Assembly: GCA_028150825.1 (NCBI GenBank)
Contig: JAOGIM010000004.1
Location: forward strand, 16,555 to 80,554
Source: Paracoccaceae bacterium
GTDB taxonomy: Bacteria; Pseudomonadota; Alphaproteobacteria; Rhodobacterales; Rhodobacteraceae
Direction: 5' to 3'
DNA: 64,000 nt
Of this stretch, positions 1,921-55,191 are shown piece after piece (within the stretch, counting starts at the first letter, position 1; every line of letters begins with the position of its first letter). The translations under genes were made by a program, and so were the position numbers. The notes under the pieces were generated by a model, which saw only the letters and a program-made list of their open reading frames with translations, was not told the DNA's origin and did no database searches.

Positions 1921-3327
1921 TTAATAAGATCTAGACGTCATTATTCCTGCTTTACTACCTGCAATTTGTCCTAAGCTTAATGCAGTCAGTAAACCATTAC
2001 CTGACAAATAACCTGAAACGTCTGGCCCAGATACGCCACAAGCGGCACCACCGCATGCAAAAATAGTGTCAAAAGGTACTCCATTAGGCCGGCAGATTTG
2101 AGCATTGCGGTTAACGCGTAGTCCACCTTGGGTATGAAACAAAGCGCCCGTGACTTTTACAGCATAATAAGGTGCTGTCAGCCGTTTTCTAGGCTCAAAA
2201 TTTCTCCCGAATGGGTCGACTTGATCGCCGCCAGCATATTGCTCGCATTTGGCCAGTGTTTTGCAAAAAGTAGCAGGCTCAACGCTGATCTTACTTGCCA
2301 GCTCTTCAATGCTGTTGGCTTTTATTAATGCACCACTCTCTTCGGCTTTGTTGAAATCATCGAAACCGCGGCCAAGAACGGCTAACCGTTCGTCAAAAAT
2401 ATTAAAGGCTATTTTTTCCTCTTGTCCAAGCACAGATACCGCTTGCTCAGAATAGCCATTATGTTCGTTTGAAAACCGTTCACCCTTGGCATTGACCTGA
2501 ATCCCACCCTCCATCATCAGGGCCCAAGTCACTAGGATCCCATGTGGATGTGCAACTGATCCATGACCCTGATAACCCGATAAATGTAAAAGCTCAGCAC
2601 CGAGAGCTTTCCCCCATAAAATTGCTTCACCTTGATTACCGGGGTGCCCAAAATAAAGTGCATCGTTCATTTCTGGGATATGTTCCGCGATAAGAGCTGG
2701 ATTGGCCCCATAGCCATTGCAGGCCAGAATGATGGCTGCGGCAGCGATGTGTTCGTGGGTACCATCAGGTCGCAAACATATTGCACCTAAAGCTTTATCA
2801 GTCTCATCGACTACAAGCTCGATTACTTGAACACCTGTTGCAACCGTCACGTCTTGCATAAGGATAGCTGTTTCAAGATGATGGATCAGGCCAACCCCAG
2901 TCTTTTCGGGTACGGTGTGCATGCGATGGTTTGTATGCCCTGGATATAGAAAATTATCCAACACATGAAACGCAATGTCGTATTTTTCACTAAGCCAATC
3001 TATAGTTCTAGGAATTTGGCTGACAATTATTTTTACATGGTCAACATCTGCAGTATTCTTGTTTTTTGCCATAATATCAGCAAAGAAGATGTCTTTACTA
3101 TCCACAATAGATTGGTTGTTTTGAGCTTTAGTCCCAGCGGCGGGAATGAGGCCAGATGACAATGCTGTTGACCCTGAAAGTCGTTTTTCACGTTCGGCAA
3201 TCAAGACAGTTGCGCCAGTTTCTGATGCAGCCAACGCAGCTGTCAGCCCTGCTGCGCCACCGCCAATAATCAGGCAATCAACTTCAATATCTGCATTAAA
3301 TTTCGAAGTACAAACGACGCCTGGCAC
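1921..3327 (-). CDS. FAD-binding oxidoreductase (fumarate reductase/KstD-like flavoprotein family)
   Basis: 468 aa. N-terminal dinucleotide-binding motif DCLIIGGGAAGLTAALAASETGATVLIAERE. C-terminal GLxAxGExA-like segment (FACGGAACGVSG). Last gene of a tightly packed minus-strand operon. Confidence 0.8.
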   Translation of the reverse strand: MPGVVCTSKFNADIEVDCLIIGGGAAGLTAALAASETGATVLIAEREKRLSGSTALSSGLIPAAGTKAQNNQSIVDSKDIFFADIMAKNKNTADVDHVKIIVSQIPRTIDWLSEKYDIAFHVLDNFLYPGHTNHRMHTVPEKTGVGLIHHLETAILMQDVTVATGVQVIELVVDETDKALGAICLRPDGTHEHIAAAAIILACNGYGANPALIAEHIPEMNDALYFGHPGNQGEAILWGKALGAELLHLSGYQGHGSVAHPHGILVTWALMMEGGIQVNAKGERFSNEHNGYSEQAVSVLGQEEKIAFNIFDERLAVLGRGFDDFNKAEESGALIKANSIEELASKISVEPATFCKTLAKCEQYAGGDQVDPFGRNFEPRKRLTAPYYAVKVTGALFHTQGGLRVNRNAQICRPNGVPFDTIFACGGAACGVSGPDVSGYLSGNGLLTALSLGQIAGSKAGIMTSRSY

Positions 3328-3330
3328 AGT

Positions 3331-3945
3331 TTATCCTCCCTCAAACAACTTGGTGGCATTAGTGATGGACATGACTTCACCAACAGTCGCCAGAGATGCT
3401 ATAGAAACGTCATGGGTTTTTTTGGAAAAGGCGGCACAGCCATCTTCTAAAGTGATTGTGTGAATATCGCGAACATGGGCATCACGAACAGTTGATGCGA
3501 CGCCACCATTGGTGACAATGCCACATACCATCAACGTTTTTATCCCCGCTCGGTTTATGGCGAAATCTAGTCGTGATTGGTAAAAAGCTGAATAGGCGAC
3601 CTTTTCAATTGTAATGTCAGCAGGTTGAAGCTCTTCAACAAGTGAATGGCCCCAGCCTGATGGCATGAAATCTCCTTTAGTCAAAAATGGCCGCAATTTC
3701 TTTAAATGGTCTGATATAAATGGTTCGCCCTTCTTACCTGGCAAAAGGGTAAATTGTGTTGAGATAATCCAACCTCCTGCCTTGCGCACAACATCAAGAA
3801 GGGGCGCAACTTTTGATGGCAGTGCAGCGATATCCTGGCTTGACGTTCCAGAGCGACCATACGCGCCTTTAGCGTGTAAGAAGTCATTCTGTAGGTCGAC
3901 AATCAGTATGGCAGTTGTTGACGGTTCAAAAGGCTGTTTAGACAT
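3331..3945 (-). CDS. Isochorismatase-family hydrolase
   Basis: 204 aa. The AILIVDLQNDF motif and the VTNGGVASTVRDA segment match the isochorismatase/cysteine-hydrolase fold. Abuts the hyuA stop. Confidence 0.8.
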   Translation of the reverse strand: MSKQPFEPSTTAILIVDLQNDFLHAKGAYGRSGTSSQDIAALPSKVAPLLDVVRKAGGWIISTQFTLLPGKKGEPFISDHLKKLRPFLTKGDFMPSGWGHSLVEELQPADITIEKVAYSAFYQSRLDFAINRAGIKTLMVCGIVTNGGVASTVRDAHVRDIHTITLEDGCAAFSKKTHDVSIASLATVGEVMSITNATKLFEGG

Positions 3946-6000
3946 TTAAGCCACCTCTTGTTTCATAATGATATTTCCAAAATCGTCAACCACGGCATAG
4001 ATACCCGGATCAATATATATGGTTGCATCTGGCTGAACCAGTAATGCTGGTCCAGATATTTTACCTCCTTGAGGTAATAACAGTCGGTCAAAAATAGCAG
4101 CGTTATGCCATTTGCCGTTAGAAAATATCTTTTGTCCTGTCAAGCGGCAGGCCTCGGCACTGTCAGCGCGGGGACCGCGGGCCAACATTTTGATGTCAAT
4201 TTGGGGCCGTTTCCCGATTATAGACAGCTTGAGGTTTAGGATGCGAATTGGGATTTCATTGAGCAGCCGGCTGTAGGCTTTGAGGTAACTTTCCTCAAAA
4301 GCATTTTGGATCGCATCAATTGTAACAGCTTTATTGCTTATGATTGGCACAGCAACGGCATGTGTTTGACCTGAGTAGAGCATATCAAGTTCAATAATGC
4401 GTTCGATACCATCAAGTTTGGCGTTTGACTGCTTAACAATCTCCTGAGCCGAGTTTGCCATCTCAGTGATTAGTTCATTCAAATAAACTTCATCAAGAGT
4501 TTCTAGCATGATGTTTAACGTCCGCACTTCATCATGCCGTAAGTCGGACATTACACAGCCAAGTGCGGAGGTAACGCCTGGGTAGCGGGGCACAATGGCC
4601 GCTGCCAAACCAATATCTTGAATTAGCGCCCCTGCATGAAGTGCGCCCCCGCCCCCAAACGGCATCGCTGCAAATAGTTTGGGGTCATGCCCACGTTCGA
4701 TAGAAATAAGGCGGATTGCGCCAGCCATCTTAGAATTTGCTACTTTTATGATTGCTTCAGCGGCATCTTCGACACTCAGATCAAGTGGGTTAGAAATATA
4801 TTTTTTGATTGCTGCTGCTGCCGCGTTTCTGTCAAGCGTGGTCAATTTATTACCGATAGGTTTACGAGAATCAATACGCCCTAAAACCAAATTGGCGTCC
4901 GTTACTGTGGGCCGTTCATTGCCAAGGCCATAGCAAACAGGTCCAGGATCTGATCCGGCACTGTCAGGGCCAATTTCAAGCAGCCCAGTCTCATCAATAT
5001 GAGCGATTGAGCCTCCTCCCGCCCCAATCGTGGACATTTCAATCATTGGTGTTCTGATGACCATGCCAAAATCAATACTGGCCTGAGCAGTAAGCATATT
5101 TTGACCAGCCGCCACCAGAGATACATCAAAGGATGTACCGCCCATATCGCCAGTAATGACATTGTCAAACCCAGCTGCCTTTGCAATTTGTCGTGCTGCT
5201 ACCACGCCGGCAGCAGGGCCAGAAAGAGCTGTGCGAACCGGTAACGATTTTGCCGTATCAACCGACATAATACCGCCGTTCGACTGTACTATTAGGATTT
5301 CAGAATTTGCATTTTCTTCTGCAATTTTAGTTTCAATCTGGGTTAGATATTCGGCCACCACTGGCTGAAGGTAAGCGTTTAAGCTAGCGGTGGAACAACG
5401 TTCAAATTCTCTAATTTCAGGCAGTATTTCTGTCGCAACGCTGACATATTCATTCGGCCAAACTTGCCGCAAGATTTTTGCAGCTTTTGCTTCGTTCTCT
5501 TTATTGGCATATCCATTGATAAAGAACAGGCAAATGGACAAACAACCTTGGTCTATCAAATCTTTGGCAGCCGCTTTGATGGATGCGGCATCAATATCTG
5601 TGATAATCGTGCCATCCGCCAATGTCCGCTCTGGGACCTCAAGGCGGCATTTCCGGTCAATGACAGGTTTAAATTGTCCCCATAACCCCCAAGTGGTTGG
5701 GCGGTCACGTCGGCGCATTTCTAGAACGTCTCGAAACCCCTGGGTAGTAATAATTCCAGCCTTTGCCCCTTTGCGTTCAAGTAGGGCGTTGGTTGCCACG
5801 GTTGTACCATGGATGATTGTTGAGACCGAATTTAAATCATTGCTGGTCACCGCCATAATGCCACTTAAGAATCCGCTGGATTGGTCCCCTTTTGTTGATG
5901 GAACTTTTTCAACACAAACTTCACCGGCTTCTTCATCAAGGGAAACTATGTCAGTGAAGGTACCGCCAACATCAACGCCAATTACGATTGATTTTTTCAT
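3946..6000 (-). CDS. hyuA: Hydantoinase/oxoprolinase A subunit (ATP-dependent, HyuA family)
   Basis: 684 aa. N-terminus IGVDVGGTFTDIV and the length are typical of N-methylhydantoinase A/5-oxoprolinase. The start overlaps the hyuB stop in an ATGA. Confidence 0.9.
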   Translation of the reverse strand: MKKSIVIGVDVGGTFTDIVSLDEEAGEVCVEKVPSTKGDQSSGFLSGIMAVTSNDLNSVSTIIHGTTVATNALLERKGAKAGIITTQGFRDVLEMRRRDRPTTWGLWGQFKPVIDRKCRLEVPERTLADGTIITDIDAASIKAAAKDLIDQGCLSICLFFINGYANKENEAKAAKILRQVWPNEYVSVATEILPEIREFERCSTASLNAYLQPVVAEYLTQIETKIAEENANSEILIVQSNGGIMSVDTAKSLPVRTALSGPAAGVVAARQIAKAAGFDNVITGDMGGTSFDVSLVAAGQNMLTAQASIDFGMVIRTPMIEMSTIGAGGGSIAHIDETGLLEIGPDSAGSDPGPVCYGLGNERPTVTDANLVLGRIDSRKPIGNKLTTLDRNAAAAAIKKYISNPLDLSVEDAAEAIIKVANSKMAGAIRLISIERGHDPKLFAAMPFGGGGALHAGALIQDIGLAAAIVPRYPGVTSALGCVMSDLRHDEVRTLNIMLETLDEVYLNELITEMANSAQEIVKQSNAKLDGIERIIELDMLYSGQTHAVAVPIISNKAVTIDAIQNAFEESYLKAYSRLLNEIPIRILNLKLSIIGKRPQIDIKMLARGPRADSAEACRLTGQKIFSNGKWHNAAIFDRLLLPQGGKISGPALLVQPDATIYIDPGIYAVVDDFGNIIMKQEVA

Positions 6001-7670
6001 GTACTTTTCCCTGAGACATAGCCTTGTTCTATATCATTATCTATGAGATTTTGTGGTCGACTGTTGGGGTTTCCATAACCACCACCACCAGGGGTTTCAA
6101 GTCGAACCCTTTGACCTTTTACGAGTTTTATGCCTGTCATTTTTGATACAAGTGCAGGCGATTTCTTTTTGTTTATGGCACCCTCATCATTACTGTCGTA
6201 ATAAAATCTGTTCATGGCTCCGGCACCGCCGCCCACGACCCCTGCTGGCGCGAATTTGCCGCGCTCACCAAATAGGAATGCGGTTGCACTCTCTTCTAAA
6301 AGTTCGATTTCATAAATTGCGCCCAGGCCACCACGATACTTGCCTGAGCCGCCAGAGTCAGGTCTTAGCGCCCATTGGGTGAACACAACTGGATAGGCGG
6401 CTTCTAGGATTTCTAATGGTGGGATTGTTGCCGTTGAAATTGGGGCATTACCGTGGTTGAGGCCATCGCCTTCAGGGTGACCTCCATGACCGCCGCCAAA
6501 GAATGAAAACATGACCCAGCGGCTACCATTTTTCCGATGGCCGGCAATGGAAAGTGCATTAATTGTTCCATATGCACAGCCATTTACTCGTTCAGGCGCA
6601 ATATTTTCGAAGGCTTGAAACAAGACATCGATCAAGCGCAGGATTGTTTCGGTATACCCTCCCACAGGTTTTGGTGCTTTGACACTTAAAAAGCTATCTT
6701 CGGGGATAATGAACTTAACTGGTTGTAGTACCCCAGCATTTGCCGGCACATCGGTAAAAATATGTTTAAGTGCTACATAGGTTGCTGCTATCGTGGTTGA
6801 TCTGGAAATATTTACAGGCCCGGCGCAGGCAGGACTGGACCTACTAAAATCAAAAATAAGCGTTTGATCCTGTATAGTCATGTCGACGGCCAATTTGAGC
6901 GCTGTGTCGTTAACACCGTCATTATCGAGAAAATCTTCTACTGAAATTGTCCCATCTGGCAACGCTGAAAGATGGTCACACATCATTTTTTCAGCCCGCG
7001 TTTTTAGAAGATTGAGGGCAGTTTTGATATTCTCCTCGCCATAATGGTCGAGCAGATCATCAAGCCGCTGATGACCCAGGTCAAGCGCATTAATTTGCCC
7101 ATTTAGGTCGCCATAGAGCGAGTTTGGTAAACGTGAGTTCGCAGATAATATATCAACAATATCACTATTCAAAATACCAGCTGAGAAAAGTTTAACTGGT
7201 GGGATCAACATCCCTTCTTGGAAGCTTTCAGTGGCTTCAGGATTATAATTGCCTGGCACATTACCACCGACATCATGCCAGTGACCAACTGAGGCAAGGT
7301 AGCAAAATACTTTATTATTCCTATATATCGGTTTGACTAGCCTAAAATCAGATAAATGTGTGCCCCCTTCATACGGATCATTAAAAATGAATACATCGCC
7401 ATCTTTAAGGCCACCATCACGCGCAATTTTATCAATCACCGCTTTTACTGCAAACGCCATCACACCAACAAATATCGGCAAGCCTGATTTGCCCTGAATA
7501 AGCGTGTCACCCGTCACAGCGTCGTAAATTCCATGGCTGGCATCATGGGCTTCGGCGATGATAGGATTAAATGCAGAACGGAAGAGTGTTGCATCCATTT
7601 CATCTGCGATTTGTTCAAGTCTACCCTTTAATATTGCAAGGGTCACGGGATCCATTTTAATTTTGCTCAT
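5997..7670 (-). CDS. hyuB: Hydantoinase B/oxoprolinase subunit (HyuB family)
   Basis: Start MDPVTLAILKGRLEQIADEM..., plus GGGGYGNP near the C-terminus. Start placed at MSKIKMDP (7670), which avoids overlap with the upstream gene; the ORF track allows 7709. Confidence 0.9.
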   Translation of the reverse strand: MSKIKMDPVTLAILKGRLEQIADEMDATLFRSAFNPIIAEAHDASHGIYDAVTGDTLIQGKSGLPIFVGVMAFAVKAVIDKIARDGGLKDGDVFIFNDPYEGGTHLSDFRLVKPIYRNNKVFCYLASVGHWHDVGGNVPGNYNPEATESFQEGMLIPPVKLFSAGILNSDIVDILSANSRLPNSLYGDLNGQINALDLGHQRLDDLLDHYGEENIKTALNLLKTRAEKMMCDHLSALPDGTISVEDFLDNDGVNDTALKLAVDMTIQDQTLIFDFSRSSPACAGPVNISRSTTIAATYVALKHIFTDVPANAGVLQPVKFIIPEDSFLSVKAPKPVGGYTETILRLIDVLFQAFENIAPERVNGCAYGTINALSIAGHRKNGSRWVMFSFFGGGHGGHPEGDGLNHGNAPISTATIPPLEILEAAYPVVFTQWALRPDSGGSGKYRGGLGAIYEIELLEESATAFLFGERGKFAPAGVVGGGAGAMNRFYYDSNDEGAINKKKSPALVSKMTGIKLVKGQRVRLETPGGGGYGNPNSRPQNLIDNDIEQGYVSGKST

Positions 7671-7677
7671 GTTGTTA

Positions 7678-8547
7678 CTATTCGTTTCCTTTATCTTCAT
7701 ATTCAGCACCTAGATCAATCAAAGCCTTGGTGCCAATGAGATCATTTAGCCCATTGAAATCATGCATTTTATCTGAAAATCTATCGTTGTTCCCATTTGC
7801 CAGTAACCCGCTGTAATACGCTTGCATATGATGCGAGATCGCTCGTACTGCACCACCTGGAAAGATTGCGATTTTATACCCTAGCTTGCCTAAGTCTTTG
7901 GCCGATGCGATAGGGGTCTTTCCACCCTCAACCATATTAGCCAGTAATGGAATTTCATGCGCAAATTCAGCACAAATTTTGTTCATTTCATTCATGGATT
8001 GCGGCGCTTCTATAAAAAGCACATCCGCACCAGCCTCTTTATAAGCTCTCGCCCGGTCGATAGCTTGAGAAAACCCTTCTACGGACCGGGCATCTGTACG
8101 TGCAATGATTAGTGTGTCTTGGCTATTGCGGGCATCTAGGGCAGCATGAATTTTGCCAACCATTTCATTTTTTGTGACCAGTTTTTTGCCATCTAAATGG
8201 CCGCATTTCTTGGGAAAAGATTGATCTTCAAGTTGGATCGCACTTGCACCTGATCGCTCAAAACTTCGCACGGTGCGCTGCACGTTAAGCGCATTACCGA
8301 ACCCATTATCTGCATCAACAATGATGGGCGTATTAATGCGATCAGTGATAGCTGCGATGGTGTCATTAACTTCAGAGACGCTGACCAGTCCAATGTCGGA
8401 CCGTCCAAATCTTGTGTAGGCAATGCTTGCACCAGATAAGTAGACCGCTTTTGTCCCTGACTGTGTTGCAATTAAGCCCGATAGCGCATCATAAATGCCT
8501 GGTGCAACCAGCAAGCCACCTTCGGATAGTAAATCACGTATGCTCAT
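7678..8547 (-). CDS. Isocitrate lyase/PEP mutase superfamily enzyme (methylisocitrate/dimethylmalate-lyase-like)
   Basis: 289 aa. Catalytic-loop motif LEDQSFPKKCGH, plus IARTDA and DxxFIEAP motifs as in the PrpB/carboxy-PEP mutase family. Confidence 0.85.
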   Translation of the reverse strand: MSIRDLLSEGGLLVAPGIYDALSGLIATQSGTKAVYLSGASIAYTRFGRSDIGLVSVSEVNDTIAAITDRINTPIIVDADNGFGNALNVQRTVRSFERSGASAIQLEDQSFPKKCGHLDGKKLVTKNEMVGKIHAALDARNSQDTLIIARTDARSVEGFSQAIDRARAYKEAGADVLFIEAPQSMNEMNKICAEFAHEIPLLANMVEGGKTPIASAKDLGKLGYKIAIFPGGAVRAISHHMQAYYSGLLANGNNDRFSDKMHDFNGLNDLIGTKALIDLGAEYEDKGNE

Positions 8548-9050
8548 GACTGCGTTTCTTCCTGTTCAAAACGTTTCTCAAGGTGGGGAACTAACCCTCC
8601 ATCTAAAATCAACTTTTTGAGAAAATTGGGGAGAGGGATCAGTTTAATACAGGTCGCGTTATCCAGAATTTGCAACTCTGCGTCATCGAAATTGAACTCT
8701 ATCTCAGCGCCGTCTGCTAACGCGGGTATGCTCATGAGCTTCTCATCAATTGTAAAAACTGGCAAACCGAGGTTGATTGCGTTTCGATAGAAAATTCCTG
8801 CAAAGCTTGGTGCGATGACGGCTGATATACCTAAATATTTCAAGACTTCAGCGGCTTGTTCGCGGGATGAACCAACCCCCATATTGGCATTGGCTAAAAG
8901 AACGTCGCCTTTTACTACAGAACGCGCAAAATCAGGCCTAACAGCCTCTAGGCAATGACGTGCAAGCTCATGTAATGGAGATTTCATATAAAATCCAGGC
9001 GCAAGAATGTCGGTATCGATGGTACCTTCAAACCTCCATAGTCGAGGCAT
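8544..9050 (-). CDS. Aconitase-family dehydratase small subunit (LeuD-like)
   Basis: 168 aa with swivel-domain pattern GxNxGxGSSREQA. 4-nt overlap with the downstream gene. Confidence 0.85.
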   Translation of the reverse strand: MPRLWRFEGTIDTDILAPGFYMKSPLHELARHCLEAVRPDFARSVVKGDVLLANANMGVGSSREQAAEVLKYLGISAVIAPSFAGIFYRNAINLGLPVFTIDEKLMSIPALADGAEIEFNFDDAELQILDNATCIKLIPLPNFLKKLILDGGLVPHLEKRFEQEETQS

Positions 9051-9053
9051 GCG

Positions 9054-10328: not shown

Positions 10329-10444
10329 AGCGTATCATATAACGGCAGCAATGCTATAAATATTTTTGTCTTAATGAGTCACATATATTAGTGTAATTTG
10401 ATAACAGTCCACACGTTTTTGTTTTGAGCTTGAGGAGAAAAAGA

Positions 10445-11020: not shown

Positions 11021-11399
11021 AATTAGATCAATGGTAAAAACTTATTTTCGCGGCGTTGACGACGAAGATTTGTCATTATTACTTGGGACGCTTTCTGAAG
11101 AGTGCGTGTTTTCCATTGAAACACATGGCATAAAATTAATTGGTCATGATGCGATTAGCGGAATGTTCCATCGTCTTTGGTCAAATCATAAATGGGTGCG
11201 CCATGATCAGTTTTCCTTTGTTGAAGATACACAAAATGATGCAATAGCGGTCCGGTTCATGGTAACGAACCAACTGCCTGATGATCAACTCGTCTATAAA
11301 TCAAACTGCAATTTTTTCACCCTCAAAGGTAATAAATTTAGTGAAGTTCGGGTTTATATGTCTGGTGAGAATACACTGGACCATGCCAATCAGTCTTAA
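11007..11399 (+). CDS. SnoaL/NTF2-like small protein
   Basis: 130 aa. The pattern YFRGVDDEDLSLLLGTLSEECVF is typical of SnoaL-like cyclase/NTF2 folds. The start is uncertain (11007 or 11031). Confidence 0.6.
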   Translation: MKLSKIRSMVKTYFRGVDDEDLSLLLGTLSEECVFSIETHGIKLIGHDAISGMFHRLWSNHKWVRHDQFSFVEDTQNDAIAVRFMVTNQLPDDQLVYKSNCNFFTLKGNKFSEVRVYMSGENTLDHANQS

Positions 11400-12160: not shown

Positions 12161-12217
12161 CTTTTTAACCGCCTATGCAAGCATTGATAAATCTTCGTTA
12201 GTATAAGGACGCCACCA

Positions 12218-12958
12218 ATGATCACACTTGTCAATAGAAGCCTATTTATAAGTGGTGTTGGATCGGGGATCGGGCTTGCGACCGCGCGTCTTGCCCATAG
12301 CCTTGGAGCAATGGTGTCTGGTACCGTTTTAAGTGACGATCAGATCGGAAATTTGGAAGGCATCATCCCTGAAGAGCGCTGTTTTAAACTTGATGTGACG
12401 GATGGTGTTGCTTTGAAGGCTGCAGTCGATAAAGCGGCGTCTAGATGCGGTGGCCTTAATGGAGTTGTTACCTCAGCGGGCATTATAAAACTGCTTACCA
12501 GTGAAAACACTAAACCCGATGACTGGGCTCGTATTCTCGATGTCAATTTGAGCGCTAGCTTTAACCTTGCTCGATATTCAATCCCTTATTTGCGAAAAGG
12601 CACATCGGGCTCTATTATAATGATCTCTAGTCAGATTGGATTGGTTGGGCATCGCAATGCAGCTGCTTATGCAGCATCTAAATCAGCCATTAATGGATTG
12701 GCAAGATCTATGGCGCTTGAACTTGCAAGCGAAAATATTCGGGTAAATGCTATTGCTCCAGGGCCAGTCGCAACTGATATGACGGCTGAAACTCGGGCAA
12801 ATAAAGACAGGTCTGATACATTGCGAGATAGCATCCCTCTTGGACGATTTGGCACAGCCGAAGAGATCGCAAATCTCGCAGTTTTCTTACTATCTGAGGC
12901 GTCTTCTTTTATTACTGGACAGGTTGTCGTTGCCGATGGCGGCTTCACTGCACAATAA
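12218..12958 (+). CDS. Short-chain dehydrogenase/reductase (FabG-like)
   Basis: 246 aa with SGVGSGIG Rossmann motif, NAAAYAASK catalytic YxxxK and the PGPVATDM segment. Confidence 0.9.
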   Translation: MITLVNRSLFISGVGSGIGLATARLAHSLGAMVSGTVLSDDQIGNLEGIIPEERCFKLDVTDGVALKAAVDKAASRCGGLNGVVTSAGIIKLLTSENTKPDDWARILDVNLSASFNLARYSIPYLRKGTSGSIIMISSQIGLVGHRNAAAYAASKSAINGLARSMALELASENIRVNAIAPGPVATDMTAETRANKDRSDTLRDSIPLGRFGTAEEIANLAVFLLSEASSFITGQVVVADGGFTAQ

Positions 12959-13660
12959 TCACAAGCCCAGATACGATTTTTTCAAATCGCTATTTTCACG
13001 TAACTCATCGGCGCGGCCAGAAAGGCTCACAGTACCTTCTGAAATAACATAAGCACGGTCTGCGATTGAAAGAGATTGTATCACATTCTGCTCAACTAGA
13101 ATGACTGACAAACCGCCTTCATTTATCTGTTTAATCAAATTAAACATTTGCTCTACAAGTAATGGCGAAAGGCCGAGTGATGGTTCATCCAGCAAAAGAA
13201 TACGTGGTTCGCTCATCAGACCGCGACCTATAGCAACCATTTGTTGCTCTCCGCCCGACAGTGTTCCAGCAGTTTGGCTGATGCGGTCTCTAAGCTTTGG
13301 AAAAATTTCCAAAACGCGCTCAAGATTTTTGGCGCGATTGGGTTTACCACGTCGATAGCTGCCCAGCTCAAGGTTTTCCTTAACGGATAAGTTTGGGAAA
13401 AGCTTGCGTCCCTCTGGAACATGAATAAGGCCCATATCAACAATTTCTACTGGATCACGGCTCGAAATAAGTACATTCTCAAAATAGATTTCACCAGAGG
13501 TTGGCTTAATCAGCCCAGACAAAGTATTATTTAGCGTTGTTTTGCCAACTCCGTTGCTGCCTAATACAGCAACAATTTCTCCCTCGCCAACTTCAATATT
13601 TACATCCCGCAGAACATTAACCAAGTCATATCCAGCGTGTAATTCATGGATCTTAATCAT
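12959..13660 (-). CDS. livF: Branched-chain-amino-acid-type ABC transporter ATPase (LivF-like)
   Basis: Walker A GSNGVGKTT, signature LSGGEQQ, Walker B LLLDEPS. Start placed at MIKIHELHAGY, just after the livG stop. Confidence 0.9.
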   Translation of the reverse strand: MIKIHELHAGYDLVNVLRDVNIEVGEGEIVAVLGSNGVGKTTLNNTLSGLIKPTSGEIYFENVLISSRDPVEIVDMGLIHVPEGRKLFPNLSVKENLELGSYRRGKPNRAKNLERVLEIFPKLRDRISQTAGTLSGGEQQMVAIGRGLMSEPRILLLDEPSLGLSPLLVEQMFNLIKQINEGGLSVILVEQNVIQSLSIADRAYVISEGTVSLSGRADELRENSDLKKSYLGL

Positions 13661-13664
13661 TTTT

Positions 13665-14399
13665 TCACCCTCGCGCCATAGTTTTAGCGGCGCCATGCCC
13701 GAGGTATGCCTCGATAACGGCAGGATCAGAGGCGATAGAATTGGGTGTACCGTGTGCAATTAATTTACCATCGTTCAAAACATAGGTTCGATCGGAAAGG
13801 TTGACCACTGCCTTCATCACATGTTCGATCAAAAAAATCGTAATACCGGTGTCCCTAATACCTTTGATGACATCTACTATCTCATCAATTTCGGTTGGGT
13901 TTAGTCCGGCCATTACTTCGTCTAATAGCAGCAATTGCGGATCGGTAGCTAAGGCGCGCGCTAGCTCAAGGCGTTTTCTCGCAGCTACTGTTAATCCATC
14001 CGCTGTTTGATATAGAAGGGAGGTCATACCGACAATTTCAGCAACGCGTTCAGCGTTCGATTTTGCAAGAGGTTTGTTACTCGTGTTTGCGTAAGCACCG
14101 ATCATGATGTTCTCGAGTGTATTCAACGTCGCAAAAGGCTGTGTAATCTGGAACGTTCTCACCATACCCTGCTTGCAAATTTTATGTGGCTTCAACTTGG
14201 TTATCGATGTGCCATTTAAAATGACTTCACCCTCATCGGGCTTTAGAAATCCAGCAATACTTGCAAATAATGTTGTCTTACCAGCGCCGTTTGGTCCAAT
14301 GAGCGAGACAATCTCACCTTTCGCAACATCTAGGTCAACATCTGATACCGCAACCAGCCCGCCAAAGCGTTTTGTAAGGCTTTTTACCTCAAGCATCAT
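13665..14399 (-). CDS. livG: Branched-chain-amino-acid-type ABC transporter ATPase (LivG-like)
   Basis: Walker A GPNGAGKTT, Walker B LLLLDEVMAGL, C-terminal AYLG. Start placed at MMLEVKSL. Confidence 0.9.
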   Translation of the reverse strand: MMLEVKSLTKRFGGLVAVSDVDLDVAKGEIVSLIGPNGAGKTTLFASIAGFLKPDEGEVILNGTSITKLKPHKICKQGMVRTFQITQPFATLNTLENIMIGAYANTSNKPLAKSNAERVAEIVGMTSLLYQTADGLTVAARKRLELARALATDPQLLLLDEVMAGLNPTEIDEIVDVIKGIRDTGITIFLIEHVMKAVVNLSDRTYVLNDGKLIAHGTPNSIASDPAVIEAYLGHGAAKTMARG

Positions 14400-15357
14400 T
14401 GTCTTCCTTGTTCTTCTGGGTTTTGCGGAATAGTCCAATGAGCCCATTTGGTAGGTATGAGATAATCACAATCAGAATAAAGCCGTAAACAATCAAGCTG
14501 AGTCCAGGGGTACTAATAAAGTGGCGGGCAATCTCATTTACAGTATGAAGAACAAATGAGCCAATAAGTGGCCCAAAAACTGTGCCCATGCCACCAACAA
14601 TCGTGACCAAAAGCATTTCCACCGAAAGCGCTATTGAATATGAAATTGGTGGATCAATATATAGGTACTTCTGAGCATAAAACGTACCTGCTGCACCACC
14701 CATGCCGCCCATTATCATGATCGCATAGATCTTACATTTAAGTGTATCGACGCCAAGGGCCTCTGCCGCATCTTCGTTTTCACGGATCGCAACTAGTTGC
14801 GCTCCGAAACGAGAGTGTTCAAGCCACATTGCTATGGCAAGTGAAATCACTAGCAGAATGAGCGAGAAGTAATAAAACCCAGTTGGTGAAGTAAACTGAA
14901 GATTATACAAACCAGGCGCATAGCTTAAAAACAAGCCTACACCGCCGCCTGTAAATTCAACGGAATTGGCCAATACGCGCAATAATTCTGCAAAGGCGAG
15001 TGTAATAAGGGCAAAGTAAGACCCCCGTAATCCTGAGCGAAAGCTAAGATAGCCGACTACTAATCCCAACAGTGCTCCCATGAAAATAGCTGCAAAAATT
15101 CCTATGATCGGGGGCAATCCAAAACTGCTCAATAATATTGAGGAAGTATATGCACCTGTACCAAAAAACATTACTCCGCCGAAAGAAAACTGCCCTGCAT
15201 AACCACCTAGAATATTCCAAGATTGGCCAAGGTAGGCAGTAAAGAAGATCAAGGTTAGTACATCAAGCTGAAACTTACTTGAGATACCAAACGGAGCAAG
15301 TACTGCTACGAGCAAACCGAGAGCCATAAAAAAAGTTGATTGAAAGGGCAATTTCAT
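14389..15357 (-). CDS. livM: HAAT-family ABC permease (LivM-like)
   Basis: 322 aa, polytopic hydrophobic, in a livH-livM-livG-livF arrangement. Confidence 0.9.
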   Translation of the reverse strand: MKLPFQSTFFMALGLLVAVLAPFGISSKFQLDVLTLIFFTAYLGQSWNILGGYAGQFSFGGVMFFGTGAYTSSILLSSFGLPPIIGIFAAIFMGALLGLVVGYLSFRSGLRGSYFALITLAFAELLRVLANSVEFTGGGVGLFLSYAPGLYNLQFTSPTGFYYFSLILLVISLAIAMWLEHSRFGAQLVAIRENEDAAEALGVDTLKCKIYAIMIMGGMGGAAGTFYAQKYLYIDPPISYSIALSVEMLLVTIVGGMGTVFGPLIGSFVLHTVNEIARHFISTPGLSLIVYGFILIVIISYLPNGLIGLFRKTQKNKEDNDA

Positions 15358-16232
15358 ACTTTGCTTCCAAAGATGCCAGTCGGCTTAAAGATTAAAATTA
15401 GGATAAAGATTAGGGAAATGCCAATTTGGCCGAGACTTTCGCCTAACAGCAATCCCCCGACAGATTCGGTAACTCCGATAATAAAACCGCCCAATAAAGC
15501 GCCGACAATACTACCCATGCCGCCCAGTACAACAATCGTGAAGGCGATAATGACAAACATATTACCAGTGTACGGATCAACATAGAAAATTGGCAACAAC
15601 ATGCAGCCTGCGGCACCCAAACAGGCAACGCCGATCCCAAAGGTCACAGCAAACACATGTTCAACATCAATACCAACTAGTCGGGCGCCGTCACGCTCCT
15701 TTGCAACGGCACGAATGGCTTTGCCCAGATCAGTGAGTGTCATCAACATCCATAGTAAAACGCATATAACCAGGGACGCTACGAATGAGATCAGCTTGGG
15801 GTACGAAAGGTATAGAAAACCAAGATCAAAGGATTCGTAACTGTAAGGCAGACTTATAGTTTGCTGGTCTCCGGTGAAGAAGAAGAGTGCTGAGTTCTCG
15901 AGGATGATCGAAAGCCCTAAAGTAATCAACAGAATATTTTGATCGCGACCGCCTGATAGCCTACCAATTCCCCATCGATAGATTGTATAACCAAAAACGT
16001 AGCTTGCCGGAGTGACAATTAAAATCGAGATGTAAGGATCGATATTTAAGATTTTGAATAAAAAATATGCAGAATAAAGAGCCAACATTAGCATAGCTCC
16101 ATGGGCAAAATTTATAATATGTAGCACGCCGTAAATAAGTGTTAGGCCAAGTGCTACAAGCGCATAAATGGCCCCAAACATCAGTCCGTTTATGATACCG
16201 GCTGGAAGCAAGGAAAGCGTTACTGAGAACAT
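15354..16232 (-). CDS. livH: HAAT-family ABC permease (LivH-like)
   Basis: 292 aa, polytopic, with INFAHG motif. 4-nt overlap with livM. Confidence 0.9.
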   Translation of the reverse strand: MFSVTLSLLPAGIINGLMFGAIYALVALGLTLIYGVLHIINFAHGAMLMLALYSAYFLFKILNIDPYISILIVTPASYVFGYTIYRWGIGRLSGGRDQNILLITLGLSIILENSALFFFTGDQQTISLPYSYESFDLGFLYLSYPKLISFVASLVICVLLWMLMTLTDLGKAIRAVAKERDGARLVGIDVEHVFAVTFGIGVACLGAAGCMLLPIFYVDPYTGNMFVIIAFTIVVLGGMGSIVGALLGGFIIGVTESVGGLLLGESLGQIGISLIFILILIFKPTGIFGSKV

Positions 16233-16318
16233 TTTCTGACTTTTCTAAAAAATGAAAAAAGAAGTTTTGGCAGCTCTAAACAGCATTTAGAACTGCCAAA
16301 ATCAGCATAATTTTTACA

Positions 16319-17548
16319 TTAGCTGCGAGGGAATATAGCCTTTGCAGAAGCATAAGAAGAAGGTGCAATGATCTGCACGTCGCCTTTTTGCGCCTGAATA
16401 GCGACAGCACGTGAACCCATATTTTGACCGTTTACCATTTTCGTCGGGCCGTATGGCATAAAATCGACCTCAAGCGTTGAACTTGAAAGTGCAGAATTAA
16501 CTGCTTCTTTATCAGTTGTCCCTGCACGCTCAAAACCATCTACAAGAAACATTACAGACATATAAGCACAATAGACTTCAAATGTGAAATATTTGCCATC
16601 TGCCTCGGTACGTGTACGCATTGCCTGACCAGAAGCAGAGCTTGGGTTATACCAATGGTTTACATCAATCATGTTCTCAGCAATTTGTGGCATTTCTTCA
16701 ACAAACTTAAAGTTAAATCCACCGCCAAGGACAGAATAGCTAGCCATAAATTCTACACGCTGTTGGCGCAAAGTTTTCGCCAGTAAAACATATTCGCCCG
16801 GGTAGTTAATAGGCATGATTATATCAGGCTTGGCCGCCTTCAGCCTAAGGGCAATATTATCGAAGTTCCGAGTAGGATTGGCGTGTTTGATGGTTTCGAT
16901 GACGTCTAAGCCATGGCTTGTAAGTGCTTTAGTGACCATTTTGGCTGTACCAGTGCCAAACTCTGACTCTTCATGCACAATAGCAACTGTTTTCGCAGGA
17001 GACCCTGCTGCCTTGTTTATCTCTGCAAGGTTTACAGAAGCATCTGCCGCAATACGTCCGTAACCGTCAGCCATACGGAAGACATTTGGCAGTCCACGCT
17101 GAACCAGTTTGTCCGACACACCCACGTCAATTGAAAATGGAATGTTGTATTTTGCTGCGGCTGCTGATGCTGCAAGGCCAACTGCAGACTGGTAACAGCC
17201 TTGGATAGCATCAACACCTGCCTCATTCATTTTTTCAACTTCAGCGGCGCCAATTTCAGGTTTTGTTTGAGAATCTCCAAGAATTGCTTCCACAGGAGCG
17301 CCACCCAAGGATTTAATACCTCCTGCAGCGTTGACGTCTGCGATAGCCATTTGGGCACCGTAGCGAAGTTGTGCCGCTGGAAATGCTGCCCAGCCAGTCG
17401 CTGGATGGATTAATCCAATTTTTATTGCACTTGCTGCCTGTGCTAGGTGTGGGATGGTCAAACCGGCCGATGCCAGAGCAAATGTAGCCGAAGCTTGTCC
17501 CATAAACTGGCGCCGTGAGCCAGAAAGTAACTCTTTTGTTCTTTTCAT
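16319..17548 (-). CDS. Periplasmic substrate-binding protein of the Liv-type ABC transporter
   Basis: 409 aa. Twin-arginine-like signal SRRQFMGQASATFALASAG...AQAA. Type-I PBP pattern; sits upstream of livHMGF. Confidence 0.85.
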   Translation of the reverse strand: MKRTKELLSGSRRQFMGQASATFALASAGLTIPHLAQAASAIKIGLIHPATGWAAFPAAQLRYGAQMAIADVNAAGGIKSLGGAPVEAILGDSQTKPEIGAAEVEKMNEAGVDAIQGCYQSAVGLAASAAAAKYNIPFSIDVGVSDKLVQRGLPNVFRMADGYGRIAADASVNLAEINKAAGSPAKTVAIVHEESEFGTGTAKMVTKALTSHGLDVIETIKHANPTRNFDNIALRLKAAKPDIIMPINYPGEYVLLAKTLRQQRVEFMASYSVLGGGFNFKFVEEMPQIAENMIDVNHWYNPSSASGQAMRTRTEADGKYFTFEVYCAYMSVMFLVDGFERAGTTDKEAVNSALSSSTLEVDFMPYGPTKMVNGQNMGSRAVAIQAQKGDVQIIAPSSYASAKAIFPRS

Positions 17549-17681
17549 TTTAAACTCCCATTTTTTTATTTGGTACTTTTAAATTCTTATGACTTTATAG
17601 AACTGTAAAAGGTATCTTATGTCCAAAGAATAATATAAAAGATAGAACAATTGCATTAATTTCAATATTGGGGATGCTCAT

Positions 17682-19019
17682 ATGACTGAACACCTCAACG
17701 TGTTTTCAGCGTTTATTCGCCAAACTAACTTTGATCATATTCCCACTGACACTGTATCTAGGGCTAAGTTAATAATAGCAGATTGCATTGGTGCAATTGT
17801 TGGTGGGAGCGCTGAGCCCGAAATGTTGGCTTTTGCCAATTCTATAGCATCTTCTGGCAACGCGCGAATACTGGGCAGCTCGAACTTTGCTGACCCGCAG
17901 ATTGCGAGCCTGATAAATGGAACTGCTGGTACAGTATTAGAAATGGATGAAGGCCACCAATTTGCCCGTGGGCATCCTGGCATGCATGTCCTGCCAGCTT
18001 TGCTTTCTGCGTCAGAAAACGCCGTTGATCCAGTGTCAGGAAGAGACTTTTTAACGGCATTCATAGTTGGTTACGATATCGCTGCGCGGATTGGACTTTC
18101 AACGTCACTCAATCCAAACATGCATCCTCATGGGACATGGGGTGTGGTTGGCGCGGCCGCTGCATTAGGAGCCCTTAACAAACTTAATGAAATACAATTA
18201 TCAGAAATGATAAATATTGCATCGAGCTTAACATTAGCCACAAGCAGAAAAACCATGTTGGAGGGTGGAACGGTTCGCAACGCTTACACTGGAGTTGCTA
18301 ATCAAATGGCTCACTTAGCACATGGCTTGCTAATGGCTGGATTTAGCGGTGAAAAAGATGGCCTGCGCTCAGTATTTGATGGCGTCGTATCATCTTTTTT
18401 TGATGTTGAGGCCGCATTGGAGAAAATAGGAGAGAGATTTGAAGTCAACAGAAATTATTTTAAACTGCACGCGTGTTGTCGCTACAACCACGCGGCTTTG
18501 GATGCCATTTGGATAATGATTGAGCAACACTCTGAACTTCAGTGTCCAAAAGATATTGTACGCATTGATGTTGAGAGTTATTTTCTCGCGGCGGAACTTA
18601 ATAATCAAAAGCCACGCAACGCTCTGGCAGCACGGTTTTCTATACCTTTTGCAATCGCAACGACTTTGATCAACCGGTCCTCAAGTGTCCACAGCTTTAC
18701 AGGTTCTGTCTTGAGCAATCGTGAGATACTGGCTTTAGCGGCAAAAATCACGGTCACAGAAAACAGTGATATGTCAGCTAAGTTACCTGACCTGAGACCT
18801 GCATTGGTTAACATTACTATGAGGAATGGTTTTATTTTTAGCCAAGAAGTTGAGACCAATCGCGGTGATTGGCAGGATCCGTACGATAATGCGCAATTAA
18901 AAGACAAATTTATGAGCTTAACTGCTAGACGTTGGAGTACTAAGATGAGTGAGGCAGTTTATAAAAACCTTATGGTGTTAGATGAACTTCCAGATGTTAG
19001 TAAAGTTTTTGATACTTAA
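17682..19019 (+). CDS. MmgE/PrpD-family protein (2-methylcitrate-dehydratase-like)
   Basis: 445 aa. The pattern ...DCIGAIVGGS...GHPGMHV...HACCRYNHAALDA... is typical of the PrpD family. Confidence 0.85.
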   Translation: MTEHLNVFSAFIRQTNFDHIPTDTVSRAKLIIADCIGAIVGGSAEPEMLAFANSIASSGNARILGSSNFADPQIASLINGTAGTVLEMDEGHQFARGHPGMHVLPALLSASENAVDPVSGRDFLTAFIVGYDIAARIGLSTSLNPNMHPHGTWGVVGAAAALGALNKLNEIQLSEMINIASSLTLATSRKTMLEGGTVRNAYTGVANQMAHLAHGLLMAGFSGEKDGLRSVFDGVVSSFFDVEAALEKIGERFEVNRNYFKLHACCRYNHAALDAIWIMIEQHSELQCPKDIVRIDVESYFLAAELNNQKPRNALAARFSIPFAIATTLINRSSSVHSFTGSVLSNREILALAAKITVTENSDMSAKLPDLRPALVNITMRNGFIFSQEVETNRGDWQDPYDNAQLKDKFMSLTARRWSTKMSEAVYKNLMVLDELPDVSKVFDT

Positions 19020-21284: not shown

Positions 21285-21300
21285 GCCTAACTCCCCTATT

Positions 21301-21348: not shown

Positions 21349-21360
21349 ATGGAGAAGATA

Positions 21361-55173: not shown

Positions 55174-55191
55174 CTACTTTTAACTTTCTAA

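Follow-up and report, generated by a model that had tools for sequence, protein, structure and literature searches.

The stretch of DNA analysed here, 64,000 nucleotides from contig JAOGIM010000004.1 of a Paracoccaceae bacterium (hereafter the window), harbors an island of 17 genes between positions 1,921 and 19,019 (Table 1), and its host is a low-GC (guanine plus cytosine) pelagic Roseobacter. The core of the island encodes the two subunits of a putative ATP-dependent ring-opening enzyme (HyuA and HyuB, together HyuAB), a two-subunit dehydratase of the aconitase family (LeuC- and LeuD-like, together LeuCD), a C-C lyase of the isocitrate lyase (ICL)/phosphoenolpyruvate (PEP) mutase superfamily, a protein of the isochorismatase fold (Iso-like) and an oxidoreductase dependent on flavin adenine dinucleotide (FAD). 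With a probability that we put at about 0.6, these genes form a catabolic cluster for a carboxylated cyclic amide, i.e., a lactam- or imide-type N-heterocycle, which would be converted to a substituted succinate or maleate, then to a substituted malate, and finally to a 2-oxoacid and a carboxylic acid. That the substrate is a carboxylated N-heterocycle opened by HyuAB at the expense of ATP is very probable. The folds are known, but their combination is new and the active sites are altered: the cluster fits broad families, yet it falls short of each equivalog-level or catalytic-residue test for specific characterized enzymes. Both the chemistry and the nutrient are probably new. An earlier note on this DNA had proposed import, ATP-dependent ring opening and cleavage of a substituted malate, and this broad idea is supported by co-conservation and by the family assignments.

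Conservation of the gene cluster

In the window, the genes for LeuC, LeuD, the lyase, HyuB, HyuA, the Iso-like protein and the FAD enzyme follow one another on the minus strand from 10328 to 1921 with junctions of 0-4 nucleotides, as expected of the single operon of abutting or overlapping genes described before. The HyuB gene as listed starts with GTG and overlaps the lyase gene by 32 nucleotides, but its true start is probably an ATG near 7670, because its database homologues are 552-557 residues long. Genes were assigned with a listing of open reading frames (ORFs) and with Pfam and NCBIfam profile scans, which recovered every gene previously named for the island, in content and in coordinates.

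The closest species-level genome is a Paracoccaceae metagenome-assembled genome (MAG; JAQWKM010000173, locus L004), whose island proteins are 81-97% identical to those of the window and whose island lies between the same neighbors, ZnuB and an OmpV-like gene. HyuB matches proteins of Paracoccaceae and Planktomarina MAGs at 89-94% identity, and all 120 of the 120 matches listed for it are near-identical marine metagenome sequences (at least 88% identity). In Planktomarina-like contigs, 15.7 kb are collinear with the window at 77.5% nucleotide identity in spite of other flanks (PhyH, eda/edd), which indicates that the island behaves as a unit. All 17 genes are kept in SAR116 (Puniceispirillaceae; 54-84% identity), and most of the island is also present in Rhodobiaceae and in a 489-kb metagenomic contig; the SAR116 and Rhodobiaceae contigs, too, are collinear with the window. 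With a distant Iso-like orthologue as the query, freshwater and soil lineages were reached, in which a single same-strand operon runs from the solute-binding protein gene through LivHMGF, LeuC, LeuD, lyase, HyuB, HyuA and Iso-like genes to that of the FAD enzyme. Such same-strand operons including the importer occur in loci L029, L031, L040 and L042 and in Azospirillum, Paraburkholderia and Neorhizobium, in support of the proposal that the genes make up one functional unit. Given the collinearity between different flanks and the recurrence in many lineages, the gene arrangement is far from chance.

Co-occurrence was counted in 21 loci that carry the marker of the cluster, the Cys-less Iso-like protein. 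HyuB and HyuA are encoded in all of them (21/21 each), the lyase in 20 and LeuC in 19, in support of an aconitase-family dehydratase and an ICL-family lyase as the final steps. LivF (15/21) and the FAD enzyme (13/21) are less constant, and the other genes are accessory, namely those for the tautomerase fusion (9/21), the racemase-like protein (7/21), the PrpD-like protein (6/21), SnoaL (6/21) and the short-chain dehydrogenase/reductase (SDR; 5/21). The cluster is also found, on plasmid and chromid records, in the isolates Sulfitobacter pontiacus, other Sulfitobacter, Azospirillum brasilense, A. oryzae and A. lipoferum, and further in Paraburkholderia caribensis, P. largidicola, Neorhizobium petrolearium, Tistrella mobilis, Variovorax, Roseomonas and Allorhizobium. 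On the S. pontiacus plasmid NZ_CP084961 (L033, 19612-25564), the cluster is followed immediately downstream by genes for an SDR, a protein of the histidinol dehydrogenase family (its score exceeds the hisD domain cut-off), an HpcH/HpaI-type aldolase and a TAXI-type tripartite ATP-independent periplasmic (TRAP) transporter, which may represent further steps of the pathway or a separate one.

The earlier statement that no regulator gene is visible holds for the island itself and for the pelagic genomes, but not for the isolates. Thus, a GntR/HutC-type regulator is linked to the cluster in five of five isolate loci (S. pontiacus, A. oryzae, P. largidicola, T. mobilis and N. petrolearium), and these regulators are mutually orthologous. 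No regulator gene lies inside the island, and the 64-kb window contains no orthologue of the GntR regulators of the isolates, its other regulator-sized ORFs having been left unannotated; nor was a GntR/HutC-type regulator found nearby in the pelagic relatives L001, L004 and L022. In SAR116, a LysR gene adjoins the PrpD-like gene.

No characterized pathway with this gene set was found in the literature searched in full text, in agreement with the earlier note. A paper on Burkholderia cenocepacia that contains the terms 'hydantoin racemase', 'isochorismatase' and 'isopropylmalate' was rejected, as it deals with an ordinary nic-type cluster and biosynthetic leu genes.

Probable ring opening by HyuAB

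The HyuA subunit comprises the Hydant_A_N, Hydantoinase_A and Hydant_A_C domains, and the HyuB subunit consists of Hydantoinase_B. Their best models are those of caprolactamase (503.9 bits for HyuA with CapA, 299 bits for HyuB with CapB), although both miss the CapAB equivalog cut-off of 1000 bits per subunit. The models for acetophenone carboxylase give 299 bits with HyuA and 114 bits with HyuB. HyuA and HyuB share their protein family with acetone and acetophenone carboxylases, but an acetone carboxylase subunit has about 720 residues or more, whereas the Hyd branch is shorter (PMC5214803). At 557-570 residues, HyuB is of the Hyd type, and no extra subunits are encoded.

Among the characterized ATP-dependent lactamases and hydantoinases, CapAB, 5-oxoprolinase, N-methylhydantoinase, HyuAB of Pseudomonas NS671 and the oxoindoleacetyl gamma-lactamase IaaCE share the two-subunit HyuA/HyuB architecture and the Hyd-type lengths with the island enzyme; 5-oxoprolinases and the hyu products of Pseudomonas NS671 are established HyuAB-type enzymes (PMC8453981). 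The island proteins differ from them in that their scores (504 and 299 bits) are far under the equivalog cut-offs. Moreover, the characterized members have no described link to a Cys-less isochorismatase-fold protein, to LeuCD or to the lyase, whereas the HyuAB of the island is linked to all of them.

In some lineages other ring openers occupy the place of HyuAB, which argues that the step preceding LeuCD and the lyase is the opening of a cyclic amide. Thus, no HyuAB was detected in locus L015, where a gene for an AllB-like amidohydrolase lies directly downstream of those for LeuCD and the lyase, or in L013, where this position is taken by a Cys-containing isochorismatase and a PuuE-like (allantoinase-like) protein of the deacetylase family. 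In the Rhodobiaceae loci L018 (192-5048) and L008 (1-4634), the PrpD-like gene stands beside genes for a true dihydropyrimidinase (709 bits, above the cut-off), a CN-hydrolase of carbamoylase-like type and an AllB-like amidohydrolase, together with a second ICL-family lyase paralogue (43% identity), and this set looks like a second, ATP-independent ring-opening route beside HyuAB. Imides and hydantoins are normally opened by ATP-independent hydrolases (PMC11033972).

Two loci have insertions between hyuB and hyuA, a FitA/PIN toxin-antitoxin pair in L039 (7011-7746) and a 282-residue ORF devoid of annotation in L017 (14416-15264).

The dehydratase and the lyase

The LeuD-like protein passes the LeuD/DmdB model TIGR02087 (149.5 bits, cut-off 108.95), and the LeuC-like protein passes the family models NF001614 (504 bits, cut-off 385) and TIGR01343 (435 bits, cut-off 385.7) and retains the three Cys ligands of the 4Fe-4S cluster (positions 347, 407 and 410 of E. 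coli LeuC). LeuCD misses the equivalog cut-offs for isopropylmalate isomerase and homoaconitase (TIGR02083, 353.6 vs. 610.65; TIGR02084, 119.7 vs. 245.85; NF040615, 390 vs. 550; NF040625, 141 vs. 230). The specificity loop of the LeuD-like protein reads 'DTDxLAPGxYMK', which gives no interpretable substrate specificity. The LeuC of the Paraburkholderia cluster is 59% identical to that of the window, and those of the Azospirillum and Sulfitobacter clusters are of a bacterial-type lineage, being about 34% identical to the window LeuC and no closer to it than is E. coli LeuC. Two LeuCD lineages have thus been recruited independently, so that the dehydratase step appears indispensable.

The lyase keeps the full catalytic set (D58, D85, D87, E115, K121, C123, H125, R158 and E188 in E. 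coli PrpB numbering), which is invariant in nine aligned sequences and in the isolates, and which defines lyases of the superfamily rather than PrpB specifically. In all cluster-linked lyases, T212 is replaced by V and R270 by F, and 'IFPGG' stands in place of 'LYPLS'; F186 and P236, which we take to form the methyl pocket of PrpB, are both kept. The scores are below the PrpB equivalog cut-offs (TIGR02317, 289.0 vs. 354.4; NF008455, 243.6 vs. 353), and the protein is about equally similar to 2-methylisocitrate lyases, to petal death protein and to 2,3-dimethylmalate lyase. The PrpD-like protein has no NCBIfam match, its closest relatives being IRG1 of B. subtilis, an IDS-epimerase and cis-aconitate decarboxylase. 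In Neorhizobium, its gene lies inside the operon, which makes it a genuine, albeit accessory, member of the cluster.

Two known systems invite comparison. The lower half of the 2-methylcitrate cycle (PrpD, aconitase, PrpB) employs the same three families, and the island lyase retains the K-x-C-G-H loop along with the catalytic set. However, no gene of the citrate synthase family (PrpC type) is present among the 17 genes of the island, the lyase stays below the PrpB cut-off, and the PrpD-like protein, which matches no PrpD model, is accessory. The 'methylcitrate-type' label given to the island before is therefore too specific. In the fermentation of nicotinate by Eubacterium barkeri, DmdAB and 2,3-dimethylmalate lyase (Dml) terminate a route for an N-heterocycle whose ring is opened at a cyclic amide. 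Like the island, this system pairs a two-subunit aconitase-family dehydratase, to whose small subunit the LeuD/DmdB model extends, with a lyase of the ICL/PEP mutase family. It uses an enamidase, in contrast to the ATP-dependent HyuAB of the island; the island also lacks a B12-dependent mutase, a molybdenum hydroxylase and the remaining genes of that fermentation, and its hosts are aerobic marine and soil Proteobacteria.

Proteins that lack catalytic residues typical of their families

The gene for the Iso-like protein always directly follows hyuA. The closest relatives of this protein in the PDB are cysteine hydrolases that cleave ureides (6xj4, RutB and the biuret hydrolase BiuH). Compared with E. 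coli RutB, it has kept Asp24 and Lys133, and Cys166 has become Gly ('TNGGVAST' for 'TNVCVEST'), so that it departs at the Cys from the Asp-Lys-Cys triad of RutB, N-carbamoylsarcosine amidase, nicotinamidase, NicF and BiuH. This Gly is shared by the window protein, 8 orthologues from metagenomes, 5 from isolates and, among the matches listed, 118 of 120 homologues, and paralogues outside the core keep the isochorismatase Cys. An exhaustive search of representative sequences found 'GG' only in the closest clusters, the Cys being back at about 30-36% identity. Since the nucleophilic Cys is a Gly in all orthologues, covalent amidase chemistry is excluded for the Iso-like protein. True isochorismatases such as PhzD presumably have Gly at the same position and act on a vinyl ether by acid/base catalysis. 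Parallels are offered by RutB of the Rut pathway and by the creatinine/N-methylhydantoin route, in which an isochorismatase-fold protein, N-carbamoylsarcosine amidase, acts after an ATP-dependent ring opener; RutB-like proteins, the closest characterized relatives, have the Cys, in contrast to the Gly of the Iso-like protein.

A similar loss affects the racemase-family protein, for which the PDB contains no relatives other than hydantoin and allantoin racemases. Relative to wild-type 3qvj, its two catalytic Cys are replaced by Thr and Ser ('VDTMSDSG' and 'LGSTTM'), and these motifs, nearly invariant in 7 orthologues and in Neorhizobium, deviate from the two-Cys motifs of such racemases ('ACFGDPG' and 'LGCGG'). 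The usual activities of a cysteine amidase and of a two-thiol racemase, which the family names in the earlier note would imply, can thus not be upheld, the catalytic Cys being replaced in every orthologue of both proteins. A reading of the pair as a NicF-like maleamate amidase and a NicE-like maleate isomerase was also rejected, given that the PDB relatives are ureide hydrolases and hydantoin racemases.

The closest matches of the FAD enzyme are urocanate reductase and the flavin domain of soluble fumarate reductases. In Fcc3 numbering, it retains His365, Thr377 and His504, while in nine of nine orthologues both Arg402 and Arg545 are Tyr and the Glu378/Arg381 proton relay is Trp/Met; the region of Arg545 contains a 3-residue gap in the alignment, which makes that position less certain. 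Its score with TIGR01813 is 243.6 bits, below the cut-off of 285.45. The enzyme thus lacks the catalytic and carboxylate-binding Arg residues (Arg402 and Arg545) of fumarate and urocanate reductases, and it may instead be a KstD-like, Tyr-based desaturase (or reductase) acting beside a neutral carbonyl, or on a substituted succinate.

Elsewhere, other enzymes may take the place of this one. In the Tistrella cluster, which has neither the FAD enzyme nor the lyase, LeuCD is separated from the Iso-like gene by genes for an acyl-CoA (coenzyme A) dehydrogenase and a family-III CoA-transferase, the best models for the transferase being succinate-glutarate and succinyl-CoA:mesaconate CoA-transferases. 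In L039, where the FAD enzyme is also missing, an acyl-CoA dehydrogenase and a CoA-transferase are encoded about 4 kb downstream on the opposite strand, with PrpD-like and mesaconyl-CoA-hydratase-like genes. The presence of these two activities where the FAD enzyme is absent indicates that a dicarboxylate intermediate is desaturated.

The tautomerase-SnoaL fusion

The start at 10445 gives the fusion protein the N-terminus 'MPLIEC', i.e., Pro1 after removal of Met, in all orthologues. The family is small, with 217 clusters at E <= 1e-10 among 5.8 billion sequences, yet it is abundant in marine data, some clusters having more than 600 metagenomic members, and Pro1 and about 40 other positions are invariant; by eye, the positions of Arg11 and Arg39 of 4-oxalocrotonate tautomerase (4-OT) are not conserved. 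The top Foldseek match is a full-length homologue, 9MUA ('4OT-SnoaL from P. atlanticus'; 42% identity, E 3.6e-46). The entries 9MUA and 9MUP, released on 2025-04-09, have the same two-domain architecture and Pro1 as the island fusion and represent, according to their PDB titles, an apo form and a form treated with 3-bromopropiolate. In locus L044 (7521-12084), the fusion and its SnoaL partner are found with an amidase-signature enzyme, two MaoC hydratase subunits and an EamA permease, and HyuAB and LeuCD are absent; this module may serve a related unsaturated amide by another route.

Probable uptake of the substrate

The closest solved relative of the solute-binding protein is 8WCH (114 bits, 29% identity over 378 residues), with the next match at 59 bits and the binders of Leu, Ile and Val at no more than 59 bits. 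The 8WCH entry is SAR11_0655 with bound L-pyroglutamate, for which the dissociation constant is < 5 nM (Nature 2024, PMC11485210). Both proteins are in the same Peripla_BP_6 subfamily and come from marine oligotroph settings, and the ligand of SAR11_0655 is the carboxylate of a five-membered ring amide. Their neighborhoods differ, as SAR11_0655 adjoins pxpABC-type 5-oxoprolinase genes and the island protein the HyuAB/LeuCD/lyase set. Orthologues of the binding protein in Azospirillum and Paraburkholderia have 45-50% identity to it. The shared subfamily with SAR11_0655 does not require the same ligand. The earlier view of the substrate as amino-acid-like needs revision, since the binding protein is nearer to the L-pyroglutamate binder than to the Leu/Ile/Val binders. 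The transporter varies across lineages, and the use of components of Liv-type ATP-binding cassette (ABC), TRAP, TctC or EamA systems is consistent with a carboxylated substrate.

A proposed pathway

From the gene content, co-conservation, family membership and catalytic residues described above, we infer the class of substrate and the following reactions and step order. Import would be mediated by the binding protein, exported by the twin-arginine translocation (Tat) pathway and belonging to the subfamily of the L-pyroglutamate binder, together with the ABC permease. HyuAB, as its family suggests, would then open the ring amide with ATP. The Cys-less Iso-like protein might perform a coupled, non-covalent acid/base step, which could hydrolyze an enamine or enamide or, with assistance by the substrate, a half-amide of the maleamate type. 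There is no aminotransferase or deaminase gene in the core, which, together with the absence of the usual nucleophiles, suggests that the nitrogen leaves by one of these hydrolytic routes or stays on a substituent. The resulting skeleton would be a 2,3-substituted succinate or maleate, in which the FAD enzyme could introduce or remove the C=C bond, either while the ring is intact or in the opened acid; a dicarboxylate CoA-transferase and the acyl-CoA dehydrogenase might take over this step in Tistrella and perhaps also in L039. The LeuCD-type Fe-S dehydratase would hydrate or isomerize the substituted maleate or malate, and the ICL-family lyase would cut the Calpha-Cbeta bond of the substituted malate, releasing a carboxylic acid along with pyruvate or glyoxylate as the 2-oxoacid. 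Lineage-specific helpers would be the tautomerase-SnoaL fusion, SnoaL, the racemase-like protein, the SDR and the PrpD-like protein, which probably deal with epimers, with shifts of double bonds or tautomers and with a form of the substrate that is a tertiary alcohol.

Several points weigh against this pathway. The roles of T212 and R270 of PrpB as contacts to the carboxylate of the succinate moiety, on which the meaning of their replacement depends, are our assumption. The Cys-less Iso-like and racemase-like proteins could be non-catalytic. The CoA genes of Tistrella and L039 could instead serve to degrade a dicarboxylate product such as glutarate, and the identity of the binding protein to the pyroglutamate binder is no more than 29%. 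Finally, if the ring is that of an imide, the need for an ATP-dependent HyuAB would be unexplained, imides being normally opened independently of ATP (PMC11033972).

The carriers of the cluster include some of the most abundant heterotrophs of coastal and open oceans, i.e., Roseobacters of the Planktomarina/RCA type and SAR116. As near-identical copies are also frequent in marine metagenomes, the cluster probably marks a significant, so far unrecognized compound of dissolved organic carbon and nitrogen. Automatic annotation gives misleading names ('cysteine hydrolase', 'hydantoin racemase', 'flavocytochrome c' and 'methylisocitrate lyase') to at least four enzymes of the cluster, which are variants of well-known families that lack a nucleophile or Arg residues, and solving the pathway would yield new enzyme chemistry and correct thousands of annotations. 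The system is experimentally tractable, as culturable carriers with a linked GntR regulator exist (Sulfitobacter pontiacus DSM 110277, Azospirillum spp., Paraburkholderia caribensis, Neorhizobium petrolearium and Tistrella mobilis), and a crystal structure is already available for the accessory fusion family (9MUA).

Alternative readings and candidate substrates

Hydantoin metabolism is one alternative. In the classical use of a 5-substituted hydantoin or other cyclic ureide, the racemase would be followed by HyuAB to give an N-carbamoyl amino acid, by an isochorismatase-type carbamoylase (like N-carbamoylsarcosine amidase or RutB) and by the C-C enzymes, which would degrade the amino acid. 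The PDB relatives of both the racemase-like and the Iso-like proteins argue for it, as do the AllB-like, PuuE-like, dihydropyrimidinase and CN-hydrolase genes beside LeuCD and the lyase in L013, L015 and L018, and the combination of HyuAB, racemase and carbamoylase echoes the layout of the hyu genes of Pseudomonas NS671. It was nevertheless downgraded once the catalytic Cys residues were found to be absent, with both Cys of the racemase and that of the amidase replaced in every orthologue, and it appears improbable, as no deaminase or aminotransferase is there to turn the amino acid into a substrate of LeuCD and the lyase, and the racemase-like gene occurs in only a third of the marker loci (7/21). 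That HyuAB is a carboxylase of ketones or 2-oxoacids (acetone/acetophenone type), in a cluster that elongates or rearranges a keto acid with no ring being opened, would agree with the shared protein family, with the missing nucleophiles of several 'nitrogen' enzymes and with the presence of a keto-enol tautomerase. The caprolactamase models, however, score far above those of acetophenone carboxylase (504 vs. 299 and 299 vs. 114 bits), HyuB has the length of the Hyd type with no extra subunits, hydrolytic ring openers stand at the place of HyuAB in some lineages, and the relative of the binding protein binds a lactam, all of which makes a carboxylase very unlikely. Hardly credible, finally, is the ordinary uptake and hydrolysis of L-pyroglutamate (5-oxoproline) with LeuCD, the lyase and the other genes as unrelated neighbors. 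The nanomolar binding of L-pyroglutamate by the closest solved relative of the binding protein, and the existence of 5-oxoprolinases among HyuAB-type enzymes, would fit, but the genes for LeuCD and the lyase share an operon with HyuBA in about 20 independent lineages, the identity to 8WCH is low (29%), and glutamate needs none of the LeuCD/lyase enzymes.

Within the preferred reading, a carboxylated cyclic amide, two classes of substrate deserve mention, both of which the sequence evidence, speculatively, fits in many details while deciding for neither. Monopyrroles derived from tetrapyrroles, i.e., 3,4-disubstituted maleimides and succinimides such as hematinic acid, methylethyl- or methylvinyl-maleimide and methylethylidene-succinimide, are an unlikely candidate. 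The FAD enzyme and the tautomerase-SnoaL fusion would interconvert succinimide, ethylidene and maleimide forms, HyuAB would open the imide, and the Iso-like protein would aid the carboxylate-assisted hydrolysis of a dialkylmaleamate, which is intrinsically fast; a DmdAB-like LeuCD would then hydrate the dialkylmaleate, and the lyase would release pyruvate and R-CH2-COOH (glutarate in the case of hematinic acid). The support is indirect throughout. This would agree with the LeuD/DmdB family of the LeuD-like protein and the slightly higher scores of LeuCD with homoaconitase models, with a lyase that keeps F186 and P236 (the presumed methyl pocket) and loses T212 and R270, and with Tyr at both Arg positions of the FAD enzyme, which fits neutral imide carbonyls. 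An Old Yellow Enzyme/N-ethylmaleimide-reductase-like gene in the Neorhizobium cluster, the glutarate-type CoA-transferase and acyl-CoA dehydrogenase of Tistrella, the binding of a five-membered ring amide acid by the relative of the binding protein and the hosts, which are bacteria of the sunlit ocean or associated with plants or algae, point in the same direction, and no bacterial catabolic route for these monopyrroles was found in the literature searched. On the other side, no sequence feature points specifically to tetrapyrrole products, the assisting role of the Iso-like protein is a pure chemical analogy, and the hydrolysis of imides usually needs no ATP (PMC11033972). That surface-ocean and plant- or alga-associated bacteria thereby mineralize the monopyrroles of chlorophyll, haem and phycobilins to pyruvate and glutarate or short acids, as a hitherto unrecognized, globally distributed route, is a little more doubtful still; if true, it would supply the final step that is still missing from the fate of tetrapyrroles. 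Lactams of the oxindole type, i.e., the auxin catabolites 2-oxindole-3-acetate and dioxindole-3-acetate, are likewise improbable. HyuAB would convert them to (2-aminophenyl)succinate or -malate, with the nitrogen staying on the aryl group, and the FAD enzyme, LeuCD and the lyase would yield glyoxylate and 2-aminophenylacetate, or isatinate and acetate. IaaCE provides a precedent for the lactamase, the route would need no nitrogen-removing enzyme, matching the absent nucleophiles, and the hydrophobic replacements in the lyase could accommodate an aryl group. Accessory genes of an aromatic type, namely of the Amdase family and for an FAD_binding_3 hydroxylase, a decarboxylase dependent on thiamine pyrophosphate and a glutathione S-transferase, lie near the core in soil and freshwater loci, and the hosts Azospirillum, Sulfitobacter, Variovorax and Paraburkholderia are genera linked to auxin. 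However, such a route leaves no role for the always-linked Iso-like protein, an aryl-succinate would not explain the Tyr-for-Arg changes of the FAD enzyme, and known binders of aromatic acids are less like the binding protein than a pyroglutamate binder is. As for components of the anaerobic indoleacetate (iaa) pathway, the island has no B12-dependent mutase or CoA ligase, and a CoA-transferase is present only in Tistrella and L039.

Layout of the island and neighboring genes

Table 1. Positions, strands and main attributes of the features of the island (coordinates refer to the window)
Feature	Position	Strand	Remarks
FAD_binding_2 oxidoreductase	1921..3327	-	haem-less; soluble fumarate-reductase/TcuA/KstD superfamily
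Isochorismatase-fold protein (Iso-like)	3331..3945	-	Asp and Lys kept, nucleophilic Cys is Gly
HyuA-type subunit of ATP-dependent hydantoinase/oxoprolinase/lactamase	3946..6000	-	684 aa
HyuB-type subunit	5997..7709	-	start likely ATG near 7670, then 557 aa
ICL/PEP-mutase-superfamily C-C lyase	7678..8547	-	'PKKCGH' loop
LeuD-like small subunit of aconitase-family dehydratase	8544..9050	-	passes LeuD/DmdB model
LeuC-like large subunit of aconitase-family dehydratase, archaeal-type LeuC/HacA	9054..10328	-	Fe-S Cys kept
4-OT tautomerase-SnoaL/NTF2 fusion	ORF 10424-11020, start 10445	+	Pfam Tautomerase and SnoaL_2
Stand-alone SnoaL/NTF2-like protein	11007..11399	+	co-transcribed with tautomerase-SnoaL fusion
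Asp/Glu/hydantoin-racemase-family protein (hydantoin/allantoin type)	11396..12160	-	both catalytic Cys replaced
SDR, accessory	12218..12958	+	in 5 of 21 marker loci
LivF, LivG, LivM, LivH (ABC importer ATPases and permeases)	12959..16232	-	
Hairpin, 17-bp stem	16265..16301	-	between binding-protein gene and livH
Peripla_BP_6 solute-binding protein, Tat-exported	16319..17548	-	motif 'SRRQFM'
MmgE/PrpD-family protein, accessory	17682..19019	+	divergent from binding-protein gene

The three divergent promoter regions, when compared for a shared operator, have no common 8-mer and no clear palindrome, an Rfam scan of the island returned no riboswitch or other RNA element, and scans for promoters and terminators were at or below the expectation from shuffled sequence, except for the hairpin after the binding-protein gene. 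This hairpin, with its perfect 17-bp stem, 3-nucleotide loop and subsequent T-run, is the sole strong terminator-like one in the island, and it likely acts as a partial terminator/attenuator or as an mRNA stabilizer, which would give an excess of mRNA for the binding protein.

The GC content of the island, 0.44-0.48, is inside the range of 0.37-0.48 seen elsewhere in the window. It rises from 0.39 at 1-2000 to 0.45-0.48 at 2001-10000, and values of 0.47-0.48 are also reached at 52-60 kb. Composition alone thus does not show a recent transfer, similar values being found elsewhere in the window. The island is flanked by an OmpV/MipA-like gene on one side and by the znuA-zur-znuCB cluster on the other. 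This zinc-uptake cluster, composed of znuB, znuC, zur (of the FUR family) and znuA, extends over 19241-22398 and adjoins the PrpD-like gene.

Farther away, the window contains a complete set for the incorporation of selenocysteine at 53932-58541, made up of a selD-like gene of the AIR-synthase family (53932-54999, plus strand), selB (55192-57108, minus strand) and selA (57105-58541, minus strand), with a tRNA-Sec (55082-55173, minus strand; 69 bits in Rfam) among them. A three-domain multicopper oxidase and a flavin oxidoreductase of the Old Yellow Enzyme family are encoded at 24756-26138 and 50943-52073.

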